Shown here: piece by piece, positions 2,537 to 27,554 of the stretch | How positions within the stretch are numbered: the stretch's first letter is position 1 | Layout: each line of letters begins with the position of its first letter | Source: Candidatus Saccharibacteria bacterium UBA2866 | GTDB lineage: Bacteria > Patescibacteriota > Saccharimonadia > Saccharimonadales > Saccharimonadaceae | Direction of reading: 5' to 3' | DNA: 64,000 bases | Assembly (NCBI GenBank): GCA_002350545.1 | Contig: DEEY01000002.1 | Coordinates: 38,166 to 102,165 of the forward strand | Program-made: the position numbers and the translations under genes | The notes under the pieces: generated by a model | Seen by the model: the letters and a program-made list of their open reading frames with translations, nothing else | Told to the model about the DNA's origin: nothing | The model's database searches: none

Positions 2537-2653
2537 AAAAATCAGAAATAGTGCTTTGAGGGGCTCTCAAGAGTTACGACCGAGAATGAGGGCGCTTCGC
2601 CCGTGACGACGGGCCGAAGCGACCCGTCCCCGAAAAGCACTATTTTGATTTTT
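2537..2653. repeat. Intergenic palindromic element, subfamily 1 (related to the ileS insert)
   Basis: Arms AAAAATCAGAAATAGTGCTTT / AAAAGCACTATTTTGATTTTT. The core shares ACCGAGAATGAGGGCGC and GCGACCCGTCCC exactly with 37368-37419. Confidence 0.85.
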
Positions 2654-11391: not shown

Positions 11392-11420
11392 AATTCAATT
11401 ATATCACAGTTTAGCAAGAA

Positions 11421-11497
11421 TAGCATAAACACCTTTTCGAGGACCGTAGGCTTGGGCGAACGCCCTTGAGTGTGTCCGAGGAAAGGTGTTTATGCTA
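11421..11497. repeat. Intergenic palindromic element, subfamily 2
   Basis: Perfect 16-bp arms TAGCATAAACACCTTT / AAAGGTGTTTATGCTA. The 44-nt core is 40/44 identical to 26924-26967. Confidence 0.88.
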
Positions 11498-11507
11498 TAA
11501 TATGGAT

Positions 11508-19929: not shown

Positions 19930-20004
19930 TGGTGCGGGTATGGGGAGTCGGACCCCAGTCTCATCCTTGGGAAGGATACATAATAGCCGTTATACGATAC
20001 CCGC
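19930..20004 (-). tRNA. tRNA-Gly(CCC)
   Basis: GCGGGTA...TACCCGC-A-CCA, anticodon loop TT-CCC-AA; T-loop reads TCCGACT. Confidence 0.9.
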
Positions 20005-20053
20005 TAGCTCCCTTATTATACCATATCCCCTTAAAATATGCTATAATTACTCC

Positions 20054-21727
20054 ATGGAAGAAATCAGGGAACAACTTAAAAAAGTTATTCAAGACCTTTA
20101 TGGCCTTGATTTTGCTCCCGAACTTACTCCTTCACCAGATAACATCGATGCTGATTATTCCACTAACGCCCCCTTAAAGCTCGCTAAGGAATTACACAAA
20201 AACCCAATGGAAATTGCAGAAGAAATCAATAGCAAATTAAATGCAAGCATTACTCCCCCTGGTTTTATCAACTTTGTTTTGCCGGATAGTTATCTAGCAG
20301 AGCAGATTAACAAATTAACTGATAATTTTACCGACAGTGTTAAATCCGACGAGTTTAAAGACAAAACGGTAATTTGCGAATTCAGCGATCCCAACCCCTT
20401 CAAAGTTCTCCACGTTGGCCATCTTTATACCAGTGTCGTTGGTGATTCTATTTCTAGACTTTTTGAATATGCTGGCGCCAATGTCATCAGGGCTAACTTC
20501 GGTGGCGATGTCGGACTCCATGTCGCTAAAACCATGTATATTTTGCAAAAAAAACCAATCGATACATTAACTATCGAAGACATTGCTAAATGTTATGTCG
20601 AAGGCACCGCCGCTTATGATGAAGATGAAGCTGCCAAGCAGGAAATCACCAAACTCAACAAGGAAATTTACAAGATTAATGCCGAGAAACTTCACAATAC
20701 GCCACTAGCTGAATTATACTGGAAAGGCAGGGAATTGTCTTACGACTACTTCCGTAATTTCTATGACCAAATCGGCGTCAAATTTGATAAATTCTACCCT
20801 GAATCTACTGTTGCGGGACTCGGCCTTCAAACTGTCAAAGAACAGCTCGATAAAGGCGTCTACCAAATATCTGACGGGGCTGTCATTTTCGATGGCGAAA
20901 AATACGGTCTCCATACCCGAGTGTTTATTAATCAAGAAGGTGTCCCCACCTACGAAGCTAAGGATGTCGGCCTCATCTTTACCAAATGGGACGATTACCA
21001 TTTTGATAAATCAGTTGTCATTACCGGCTCTGAACAAAAAGAATACATGGCAGTAGTTTTAAAATCAGTTGAACAATACGCCCCAGAACTCGTTGAACGC
21101 ACTACTCATCTCACCCATGGCCTTGTTAAACTTCCTGGTAACATCAAAATGTCTTCTAGAAAAGGTAATTTCCTTAAAGCCGTGGATGTTCTAGATATGG
21201 TCAAGGATGAATTAAAGAGCGAATATGATTCAAGCGACGAAACTGTCGCTCTCGCCGCTACCAAATATGCCTTCCTCAAATACAAAATGGGCGGCAATAT
21301 CATCTTCGACCCCAAAGAATCCGTCAAGATGACCGGCAACTCCGGTCCCTACCTCCTCTACTCCGCTGTCCGCGCCAAAAAGATTTTGTCAAAAGAATCT
21401 GAAAAGTTTCTCGGAGGGAGTAAGACTCGGGCTAGCGCCCCGGAGCGCTCCCGACGAGAAAGCTTTTCAGATTCTTATGAAAGGGCATTAATGAAGCGGA
21501 CGATCGAATATAAGGAGGTATTGACCGAAGCTGTCCATGAGATGGCCCCTCACAAATTAGCCAACTATCTTTACGAACTCGCCCAAGAATTTAGCCGTTT
21601 CTATGAAAACTGCCCAGTTATAGGCGCCGAAAACGAATCAGAACGCATTAAACTAGTCAAAATCTATCTCAACACTATGACTCACGGCCTAAACCTGCTT
21701 GGCATTAACATCCCGGAGGAAATGTAG
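20054..21727 (+). CDS. argS: Arginine--tRNA ligase
   Basis: EFSDPNPFKVLHVGH, KMSSRKG, GNSGPYLLY; start set after the extended -10. Confidence 0.96.
   Translation: MEEIREQLKKVIQDLYGLDFAPELTPSPDNIDADYSTNAPLKLAKELHKNPMEIAEEINSKLNASITPPGFINFVLPDSYLAEQINKLTDNFTDSVKSDEFKDKTVICEFSDPNPFKVLHVGHLYTSVVGDSISRLFEYAGANVIRANFGGDVGLHVAKTMYILQKKPIDTLTIEDIAKCYVEGTAAYDEDEAAKQEITKLNKEIYKINAEKLHNTPLAELYWKGRELSYDYFRNFYDQIGVKFDKFYPESTVAGLGLQTVKEQLDKGVYQISDGAVIFDGEKYGLHTRVFINQEGVPTYEAKDVGLIFTKWDDYHFDKSVVITGSEQKEYMAVVLKSVEQYAPELVERTTHLTHGLVKLPGNIKMSSRKGNFLKAVDVLDMVKDELKSEYDSSDETVALAATKYAFLKYKMGGNIIFDPKESVKMTGNSGPYLLYSAVRAKKILSKESEKFLGGSKTRASAPERSRRESFSDSYERALMKRTIEYKEVLTEAVHEMAPHKLANYLYELAQEFSRFYENCPVIGAENESERIKLVKIYLNTMTHGLNLLGINIPEEM
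21393..21476. repeat. Palindromic element in frame inside argS
   Basis: Arms AAGAATCTGAAAAG / CTTTTCAGATTCTT. The core resembles subfamily 2 and encodes ESEKFLGGSKTRASAPERSRRESFSDS. Confidence 0.85.
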
Positions 21728-26567: not shown

Positions 26568-27554
26568 ATGAAACGAATTCTTATTGTTTATAACCCCCGT
26601 TCTTCTCGTTATGCTGAGGTCAAAAAAGAAGTACTAGAACCGATTCATAGTCTTAAAGGGTATATCATCGGTAAATACGAGGTTAAACCCTCAAATCTTG
26701 ATGACAACATTAACAATCTTTCTAAATTATTAAAAGATGGCGATCTTGTCATTTCAGCCGGCGGTGACGCCACTGGTGTTATTGCTGCAAACGCTATCTT
26801 AAAATCCAAAAAAGACGTAACACTATCTGTTTTGCCTTTTGGCAATTTTAACGATCTCGCCCGCACTCTAGGAACTAACACCTTGAGCGAAATTCTTGAC
26901 ACGGGTGGCCGAAACCTATCTTCCGAGGACCGTAAGCTCGGCCGAACGGCCTTGAGTGTGTCCGAGGAAGATAGGTTCGGACAGGCCCCGTGTCAAAAAC
27001 TTTATCCCCTAGAAATCTGGGTAGACGATAAATTCTTCCGCTACGCCACTTGTTACGTTACTATCGGCATGACCGCTTCCGCTGTCTATTTATACGATCA
27101 ACCCAAAATGCGCAAAAAACTAAGAACCAATTTCGGTCGCAAAATCAGCTCCTATACCGAACTTGCCAAATGGTATTTCAAAAATCGCCACAAAAAGCAA
27201 TTTCTTCCAGAGTTTACCTTAAATGGCGTCAAGCAACATCCTAAAACTTCTGACTATGCCGCTGTCAACGGCCGTTCTATGGCACGAGTGATGAAGGGTG
27301 GCGACGATTTTTTAAGGCCGCATCATTTTCGTCACGAAACTGACCGCCTTACTAGTTTCCCCCGTTTAGCTAAACTAATGATTAAAAGTATTTTTTATCG
27401 TATTCCTGGGACCGATACCACCGGTGATACTTTAGAATTTACTAATCCTTCCATCGTTGAACTCCAAGCCGAAGGCGAGCACACTATCCTAAAGAATATC
27501 AAAAAAATTGAAATCAAAAAAGGAACTAAATGCCTGAAAGTCATCACGAATTAG
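26568..27554 (+). CDS. Diacylglycerol-kinase-like (DAGK catalytic domain) protein
   Basis: VYNPRS, AGGDAT, LPFGNFNDLAR, QAEGE motifs. Confidence 0.8.
   Translation: MKRILIVYNPRSSRYAEVKKEVLEPIHSLKGYIIGKYEVKPSNLDDNINNLSKLLKDGDLVISAGGDATGVIAANAILKSKKDVTLSVLPFGNFNDLARTLGTNTLSEILDTGGRNLSSEDRKLGRTALSVSEEDRFGQAPCQKLYPLEIWVDDKFFRYATCYVTIGMTASAVYLYDQPKMRKKLRTNFGRKISSYTELAKWYFKNRHKKQFLPEFTLNGVKQHPKTSDYAAVNGRSMARVMKGGDDFLRPHHFRHETDRLTSFPRLAKLMIKSIFYRIPGTDTTGDTLEFTNPSIVELQAEGEHTILKNIKKIEIKKGTKCLKVITN
26896..26996. repeat. Palindromic element, subfamily 2, in frame inside the DAGK-like gene
   Basis: Arms TTGACACGGG / CCCGTGTCAA and CCTATCTTCC / GGAAGATAGG; core 40/44 identical to 11438-11481. Confidence 0.88.

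Follow-up and report, generated by a model that had tools for sequence, protein, structure and literature searches.

The window analysed here is a 64,000-nucleotide stretch of contig DEEY01000002.1 from Candidatus Saccharibacteria bacterium UBA2866 (GenBank assembly GCA_002350545.1). It contains argS, the gene encoding arginyl-tRNA synthetase (ArgRS), and within the coding sequence of argS lies an 84-bp DNA hairpin that is read in frame. The gene is the sole long open reading frame (ORF) in the region. Its product has Pfam matches to Arg_tRNA_synt_N, tRNA-synt_1d, and DALR_1, and the closest solved structure is that of Escherichia coli ArgRS (4OBY, E = 2.7e-46). The hairpin is probably a transposase-free palindromic repeat "cassette", of a kind with the Rickettsia palindromic elements (RPEs), that occupies a permissive surface loop of ArgRS and is exchanged as DNA.

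The outer stem of the hairpin consists of 14 perfect base pairs formed by positions 21393-21406 (AAGAATCTGAAAAG) and 21463-21476 (CTTTTCAGATTCTT). It is followed by an inner stem of 7 bp, in which TTTCTCG at 21407-21413 pairs with CGAGAAA at 21455-21461, with a single bulged G at 21462. The stems enclose a conserved tip with the apical stem-loop GGGC/TAGC/GCCC at positions 21429-21440. The minimum free energy of the RNA fold of 21385-21485 is -52.7 kcal/mol, compared with -27.6 +/- 3.2 kcal/mol for shuffled sequences (z = -7.9), and none of the 200 shuffles was as stable. The hairpin encodes 27 additional amino acids of ArgRS, in frame and without stop codons. The resulting peptide, ESEKFLGGSKTRASAPERSRRESFSDS (codons 21395-21475), is immediately C-terminal to GPYLLYSAVRAKKILSK. 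The Pfam domain DALR_1 starts 14 residues before the insert; its first residue is number 484 of the 607-residue open frame, which corresponds to residue 434 of the protein. Therefore, the insert is positioned between helices 1 and 2 of the anticodon-binding domain. The original prediction, made from the sequence alone, described an 84-bp palindromic element with 14-bp perfect arms that is translated at the beginning of the anticodon-binding domain of ArgRS, and this is borne out by the pairing, the fold, and the ORF. The subfamily-2 layout proposed for its core was also correct, with the tip fitting the subfamily-2 model as the variant sub2b.

The hairpin belongs to a repeat family. Iterated nhmmer models derived from the copies in the window identified 48 copies in the 721-kb assembly of this genome (G000), of which 22 have a "sub2" tip, including the sub2b variant, and 26 have a longer "sub1" tip. 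The spacing of the copies is irregular and clustered. In every copy the tip is conserved, and the arms differ by locus yet are complementary to each other. The conserved tip is 41-80 nt long across the family, and the outer ends of the elements are not conserved. Among 34 sub2b copies from many genomes, the arms of different loci have a mean identity of 37%. However, Watson-Crick pairs are formed at arm positions 2-7 in 28-33 of the 34 copies, with four or five pair types per position, and the pairing without gaps is 86% within one copy, compared with 50% between the arms of different copies. The junction of arm and tip is bracketed by GA/GA in 30 of the 34 copies. The copies in the valine enzyme ValRS and in FemAB share their inner arms and differ in their outer arms, which suggests an outward extension of the palindrome. 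Four sister elements are located in the window (Table 1). One of them is in the isoleucine enzyme IleRS, which makes ArgRS one of two synthetases in the window with such an insert, as had been foreseen. In sub2 tips from various genomes, base 3 of the apical loop, GA[G/A]C, and a base 14 nt downstream, GAG[C/T]G, covary. The covariation is maintained in four stem/loop combinations, with one exception, and may reflect tertiary or alternative pairing.

Table 1 Features of the argS hairpin and related elements in the window (positions counted from the first nucleotide of the window).
Feature	Position	Strand	Basis or remark
argS (arginyl-tRNA synthetase, 557 aa), host gene	20054..21727	+	ORF; Pfam; similarity to solved ArgRS
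Whole 84-bp hairpin, sub2b type, translated as K-ESEKFLGGSKTRASAPERSRRESFSDS-Y	21393..21476	+	Pairing; ORF
Left arm (AAGAATCTGAAAAGTTTCTCG)	21393..21413	+	Pairs with 21455-21476
Right arm (CGAGAAAGCTTTTCAGATTCTT), G21462 bulged	21455..21476	+	Pairing with left arm
Conserved 41-nt tip, GA-GGGAG-TAAGA-CTC-GGGC-TAGC-GCCC-CG-GAG-CGC-CTCCC-GA	21414..21454	+	nhmmer family model
Tract divergent from the P0003 contig (L116)	21385..21524	+	Hairpin with 8 nt upstream and ~48 nt downstream; ~140 nt, 52% identical
Sister element, sub1 tip, in frame in IleRS	37316..37451	+	Family model; Pfam
Sister element, sub2a tip in outer CGGGTGG...CAGGMCCCG shell, in frame in DAGK-like kinase	26890..27002	+	Family model; Pfam
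Sister element, sub2a tip, intergenic; right arm extends into TATAAT box	11420..11498	+	
Sister element, sub1 tip, intergenic	2546..2645	+	

The orientation of the elements tracks the replication strand and not transcription. The orientation agrees with the local GC skew in 45 of the 48 copies of G000 (P = 1.3e-10); measured by the direction of the host genes, there are 12 sense and 24 antisense copies. Within the single contigs C15 and C17, the orientation switches where the skew switches. The bias is repeated in four relatives (35 of 45 copies; 27 of 33 for sub2 alone) and in 30 independent sub2b loci of other metagenome-assembled genomes (MAGs), 26 of which follow the skew (P = 6e-5). Intergenic copies are also biased (11 of 12), and thus the bias is not a by-product of reading-frame constraint. 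The third-codon skew has the same sign on both gene strands (-0.43/-0.46 in negative regions and +0.28/+0.36 in positive regions), which indicates that the skew is of the replication type. The GC skew of this genome is very strong, with third-codon values of approximately -0.45 and +0.3 and sharp switches at ~56 kb of C15 and at ~15 and ~35 kb of C17, the latter two within 20 kb of each other. The dnaA gene (C16:84.5 kb) was considered as an origin marker for the leading strand and was discarded, as it is not located at a skew switch.

The C-rich strand is presumably the leading-strand template, given the general rule of G over C and the finding that 61% of the long ORFs in G000 are on the G-rich strand. 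The + strand of the tip is G-rich according to the base count of the sub2a tip, yet the skew places it on the C-rich strand. Thus, the orientation of the elements opposes the mutational pressure. The + strand folds better than its complement in 41 of 45 copies, and this asymmetry is mostly a property of the tip. An excess of G-T over A-C mismatches in the arms, used as a test of which strand folds, was too weak to rely on (40 versus 23, P = 0.04).

The loop of ArgRS that contains the hairpin is a hot spot of turnover. It was compared across the 120 nearest ArgRS homologues of the public collection. The loop is 16-69 residues long, in agreement with the variable length anticipated for this position. 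A native loop of 16-19 residues (for example QKSSNNQPAKNTAYNTY) is present in 16 of the 120 homologues, and the remaining loops belong to at least eight classes of hairpin-encoded inserts that are 21-69 residues long. A tree of 115 tips, for which the loop positions were masked, has at least 54 changes of loop class and 11 changes between native loop and insert. In 24 genomes of the genus, ArgRS often matches piecewise within one open frame, because inserts occur both at the DALR loop and at another one, near residue 60. This second hot spot is located between a helix of the N-terminal domain and the ...ITPPGF strand, and contains hairpin-encoded inserts of 20-35 residues in several species (L009, L010, L017, and L022).

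The nearest relative of the G000 ArgRS, that of P0003, has 98% protein identity and contains a class-B, sub1-like hairpin instead. The P0003 contig (L116) is 98.5% identical in nucleotide sequence to the window over the 1,395 nt upstream (19946-21340), as opposed to 52% over 21380-21540. The divergent tract (Table 1) looks as expected of an allele acquired through homologous recombination. Since P0003 and P0004 both have class-B hairpins, the sub2b allele of the window is the recent arrival, and it replaced a class-B hairpin after the split from the P0003 strain. Alleles of class A and class B likewise occur in backgrounds that are ~97% identical. A peptide of L003/G001, "KTRAS", was considered as an orthologue of the G000 peptide and rejected, because it belongs to a different, decayed class.

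The same sub2b element, including its arms, is present in the ArgRS of P0002 (87% amino acid identity) and P0025 (75%). In comparison with P0025, 39 of the 41 tip positions and 29 of the 39 arm positions are identical, with at least four compensatory pair changes in the arms, and four-fold degenerate sites are 41.5% identical. The original prediction would have been contradicted by close relatives encoding the same peptide in non-palindromic DNA; P0002 and P0025 share the peptide, and in both the DNA is palindromic with compensatory arm changes.

Arms and tip of the ArgRS element recur in TsaD of two other genomes; the corresponding TsaD copy in G000 is decayed, and a third TsaD is empty at that site. 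The left arm of the ArgRS element is ~76% identical to the arm of the TsaD copy of the relatives, compared with the 37% mean between loci, and 9 of 34 pairs differ in a compensatory manner between the ArgRS and TsaD hairpins. The common arms and tip show that a whole hairpin has been copied between unrelated sites. The alternative that the arms are the native loop made palindromic fits the net length gains at the ArgRS loop. Nevertheless, it was dropped as the main model, because the arms common to ArgRS and TsaD, the gain of 22 residues in TsaD, and the dissimilarity of the arms to the native loop of P0013 speak against it.

Sites of insertion are reused. LigA has a sub2a element in G000 and sub2b elements with related arms elsewhere. 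At the same sites, GatB contains sub1 or sub2b, and RecX contains sub1, sub2b in sense, or sub2b in antisense orientation. The tip in UvrB is inverted between species. Elements may also be nested: in genes that are 98.4% identical, the tip loop of a class-A element has gained a 69-nt hairpin module after GACGACGG, and the same module is found at the same place of the tip loop in a class-B element of another lineage. The 69-nt modules are insertions, since the shorter forms are widespread. The module, CGCAACGAAGCGAGAGAAATTCGAGCTTGCTCGGATTTCCGAGCGAGGCAGCGACGTCTCTAAAGACGG, occurs in L061 (P0012) and P0020 and is absent from G000. Other changes include a 60-nt loss bounded by CTGAGG repeats and a 75-nt indel bounded by AACGAGT repeats, and strain-level indels are flanked by direct repeats of 5, 6, and 7 nt.

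Approximately 33 copies of G000 are in frame within genes and approximately 15 are intergenic. Host genes, identified by Pfam, include those of the synthetases LeuRS, ValRS (two copies), ArgRS, IleRS, and PheT; the amidotransferase subunits GatA and GatB; the tRNA- and rRNA-modifying enzymes MnmA, TruB, TsaD (two copies), Tgt, and a UPF0020-type methylase; and the translational GTPases LepA, Obg, and Der. Further hosts are the replication and repair proteins TopA, DnaX, PriA, UvrB, LigA, RecX, and TatD; the envelope proteins MurB, FemAB, a GT1 glycosyltransferase, and DegT; and an Aminotran_5 enzyme, a P-type ATPase, and a DAGK-like kinase. Two other hosts, TypA and an O-antigen-ligase-like protein, were recognised by visual inspection only. 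The enrichment in translation genes that was proposed for the family holds in part. Translation-related genes contain 18 of the 33 intragenic copies, and synthetase genes contain 6, roughly threefold more than the ~1.7-1.8 expected under uniform insertion per coding base (Poisson P ~0.01). The latter is a rough estimate that assumes ~33 kb of synthetase genes in ~650 kb of coding DNA. However, replication, repair, and envelope genes are also hosts, and therefore the bias looks like one towards long, conserved housekeeping genes and not translation alone.

Intragenic tips lie in either orientation and are read in several frames, and no gene uses a tip frame with a stop codon. The strain-level indels of 60, 69, and 75 nt are all multiples of three. 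Both features speak for translation of the elements and against their removal. Because the same tip is found in several frames, in both orientations, and also between genes, the peptide is a by-product and the DNA hairpin is the unit of inheritance.

Several intergenic copies are located directly upstream of a TGnTATAAT box. In five of them, (T)GTTATAAT forms the end of the right arm, 6-8 nt ahead of an ATG, and the left arm is an inverted copy of this sequence (positions 11420-11498 of the window and C22:14374, C15:43107, C8:9638, and C15:47748 of G000). These hairpins thus contain the -10 box of a promoter of the leaderless type, which was either brought in with the element or is native and was overgrown by the palindrome.

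The effect of the insert on ArgRS was predicted with AlphaFold2. In the model, which has a mean predicted local distance difference test (pLDDT) score of 76, a helix of residues 431-453 runs through the left arm and is followed by a coil (454-473) and a second helix (474-484). Residues 456-470 of the insert have pLDDT values below 50. At the corresponding position, the E. coli enzyme has a loop of 21 residues of its own. In the predicted structure, the insert looks like a tolerated, disordered surface loop.

The distribution of the tips was surveyed in ~400 sampled genomes of the class. The sub2 pattern is present in 12 of 37 genomes of the genus, with 0-12 copies each; the 364 genomes sampled from 185 other genera have none. 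The sub1 pattern was found in 11 of 401 genomes and is confined to 1 of 180 genera. A scan of one genome per species recovered 30 sub2b loci, all in MAGs designated Candidatus Saccharibacteria or Candidatus Nanosyncoccus from the gut of goat, sheep, and roe deer. Among the sampled genomes of the class, the tip patterns occur only in the genus Nanosyncoccus. Viral contigs of IMG/VR contain no match to either tip pattern, and a phage origin was rejected on this basis. Full-text literature searches returned no description of such elements in Saccharibacteria.

Taken as RPE-like repeats, the hairpins would be selfish or neutral palindromes that persist where the protein tolerates a loop. A step in their insertion or survival may be linked with replication, by way of single-stranded DNA or a hairpin formed on one template strand, and they could spread between lineages by homologous recombination through the conserved flanks provided by housekeeping genes.

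Several points weigh against this explanation. A selfish insert in decay should be less conserved than this hairpin is. The element is identical at 77 of 80 positions between G000 and P0002, although four-fold degenerate sites are only 49.7% identical and the next 120 nt downstream 78%, and the changes between the arms are compensatory. The explanation does not account for how the arms came to differ between loci; some arms were clearly copied along with the tip. We infer the translation of the elements from the conservation of reading frames. Furthermore, a mobilising enzyme is lacking among the candidates considered: the Y1 transposase family PF01797 has no match in G000 and is present in 7 of 81 genomes of the genus, in a search that did not extend to the DDE, IS110, and TnpB families. 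No tips are located beside the Y1 genes of the genus. The Y1 transposase (IS200/IS605/RAYT type) was rejected as the mobiliser, being absent from G000, rare in the genus, and without adjoining tips. A link to reverse transcriptases was also rejected, since these are encoded in 13 of 16 genomes irrespective of the presence of tips. The conservation of tips and stems may reflect selection on structure, transfer at the level of the cassette, or a function for the host. An argument that it proves purifying selection is weakened by the tree, in which hairpin alleles move between backgrounds.

Intact Y1 genes of the IS200/IS605 type were observed at L035-L038 (genomes G023, G453, G478, and G442), and the one in G023 is ~6 kb from argS. 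Two reverse transcriptase genes of G000 (C16:7914-8909 and C15:54657-55820) have only the RVT_1 domain, without a maturase domain. The latter adjoins a weakly Fib_succ_major-like gene and a recombinase-like gene.

A more specific proposal is that the elements are transposase-free cassettes, which would combine replication-strand-specific copying into tips with recombination or natural transformation through the flanks of essential genes, or else that they are host signals oriented with replication and dual-coded with protein. This two-way proposal is possible, but we consider it doubtful. If the cassettes did propagate in this manner, essential genes of these ultra-small bacteria would hold, at fixed hot spots, DNA structures that cycle fast and are exchanged horizontally.

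Among the other explanations, the best supported is a "drive" element of recombination or transformation, in which the tip would bias DNA uptake, breakage, or gene conversion, so that hairpin alleles would spread horizontally by way of conserved flanks in housekeeping genes and without a transposase, in the manner of uptake sequences or of intein homing with no endonuclease. The occurrence of identical hairpin classes in ArgRS backgrounds that are divergent, and of different classes where the backgrounds are near-identical, agrees with such a drive, as do the conservation of the hairpin (96%) between flanks that are 73-78% identical, the conserved housekeeping nature of the host genes, tips that resemble a genus-specific "dialect", and the lack of a Y1 transposase in G000. 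However, ~48 copies per genome correspond to approximately one per 15 kb, and known uptake sequences are short and ~100 times denser. The copying between ArgRS and TsaD, which are non-homologous sites, would require a further step. On balance, a drive seems unlikely.

It is less probable still, and in our view improbable, that the hairpins are DNA signals domesticated by the host, that is, one-strand cis-elements for priming, restart, topology, or nucleoid organisation that are selected even within genes. Such signals would explain the tie of orientation to the replication strand, the near-invariance of tips across species with compensatory substitutions in the arms, the placement of the G-rich tip strand on the C-rich strand against the mutational bias, and the better folding of the + strand. 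By contrast, the family is patchy within the genus, down to genomes without any sub2 copy, sites are often empty or contain other or inverted tips, turnover is rapid, and the copies are irregularly spaced and clustered. The G-T excess in the arms alone is weak.

A role of the hairpin in argS mRNA, as a regulator of translation, stability, or processing, is very unlikely because the orientation ignores transcription. The RNA hairpin is very stable and its tip conserved, but sense and antisense copies mean that mRNAs carry either strand. Only tRNAs were matched in the window by Rfam 15 in gathering mode. In the permissive E-value mode, the best matches of sub2b and sub1 copies were generic miRNA hairpins, at 23 bits with a cut-off of 81, and Actinomyces-1, at 14.7 bits with a cut-off of 39.1; thus, no match was near its gathering score. 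The argS element has no promoter or terminator signal, and in sister strains the loop is empty or contains unrelated hairpins. An adaptive protein insertion, by which the 27 residues would give ArgRS a new function such as the binding of tRNA or a partner, is hardly credible in spite of its location in the anticodon-binding domain and its maintenance in frame, because the peptide differs completely in the nearest strain and, where the same DNA lies in other genes, the peptides are unrelated; in addition, the peptide is modelled as disordered, 16 homologues have no insert, and conservation is at the nucleotide level, including synonymous positions.

We return to the reading of the hairpins as RPE-like cassettes and compare them with known systems. 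According to the sections of PMC10969869 on these repeats, which summarise Ogata et al. 2000, RPE-1 to RPE-10 are ~150 bp long, are conserved over their whole length, and have one conserved peptide per family. The features shared with RPEs as outlined there are that short palindromes, dispersed in a reduced genome, are very often placed in frame in unrelated housekeeping genes and translated, at sites compatible with the protein fold, without an encoded transposase. Unlike the RPEs so described, the elements studied here have only a conserved tip of 41-80 nt, locus-specific arms, several reading frames, and both orientations. They also differ from that account in being oriented with replication, in the reuse of sites, in the exchange of alleles between strains, and in their taxon. 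Homology in sequence to RPEs is unlikely; the RPEs were compared by description, and the tips are limited to one genus of Saccharibacteria. As far as we could find, conservation of the tip only, near-complete orientation by replication strand, and loop hot spots with hairpin replacement have not been reported for RPEs.

A second comparison is with repetitive extragenic palindromic (REP) sequences, bacterial interspersed mosaic elements (BIMEs), and REPINs, with their REP-associated tyrosine transposases (RAYTs) of the Y1 type, and with GTAG/CGTC-tagged palindromes (PMC3733652). REPs are 20-40 bp long and extragenic, have conserved stems, and are linked to a RAYT gene. The elements of Nanosyncoccus resemble them as GC-rich imperfect palindromes with many copies and lineage-specific occurrence, and in both, recognition of single-stranded DNA or hairpins may be involved. 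However, about two-thirds of the copies in G000 are intragenic, the stems are unique to each locus, and the genome has no Y1 gene.

The closest precedent for the agreement of 45 of 48 copies with the skew is the orientation bias relative to replication of the palindrome-associated transposable elements (PATEs) of the IS200/IS605 group. A bias in orientation relative to the replication fork is reportedly a hallmark of the single-stranded DNA transposition of IS200/IS605 elements, from which PATEs are said to be derived. Elements of this type need the Y1 transposase TnpA, two subterminal hairpins, and a fixed target tetranucleotide. By contrast, TnpA is absent from G000, and neither two subterminal hairpins nor a fixed target tetranucleotide was seen.

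Similarity to miniature inverted-repeat transposable elements, known as MITEs, consists in the elements being small, non-autonomous, hairpin-forming, and sometimes nested (PMC10969869), and the tip has short inverted termini, GGGAG...CTCCC. The GA/GA bracket could be a 2-bp duplication. Unlike MITEs, the elements have no conserved outer terminal inverted repeats, the repeats at indels vary from 5 to 7 nt, and no autonomous partner was found in the Y1 and reverse transcriptase searches. Uptake sequences (DNA uptake sequences, DUS, and uptake signal sequences, USS) are 10-12 nt long and occur about once per kb, and homing inteins and introns encode an endonuclease. The hairpins share with these systems a genus-specific motif, tolerance in conserved housekeeping genes, and spread by recombination through the flanks. 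However, their tips are 41-80 nt long, and the 48 copies are distributed over 721 kb.

In-frame palindromic repeats in essential genes were formerly a curiosity of Rickettsia and are now found in the unrelated Saccharibacteria, ultra-small and host-dependent members of the candidate phyla radiation. The elements provide a testable system for the spread of selfish DNA without a transposase, for the roles of replication and natural transformation in it, and for the tolerance of essential enzymes to loop turnover. In practice, the hairpins inflate the apparent divergence of proteins and seem to break MAG assemblies, and they could serve as strain markers. Runs of N or contig ends are located within or beside elements at C24:1165-1222, C21:7033-7087, C15:41516-41652, and C22:24817 of G000, and the hairpins seem to break or confuse short-read assemblies.

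Another family of hairpins is present in the same genome, at 38295-38387 of the window and at C14:9861-9935 and C9:19674-19820. Its arms, AAAAATTACAAC...GTTGTAATTTTTAT, are conserved and its centres are variable, which is the opposite layout to that of the family with conserved tips.

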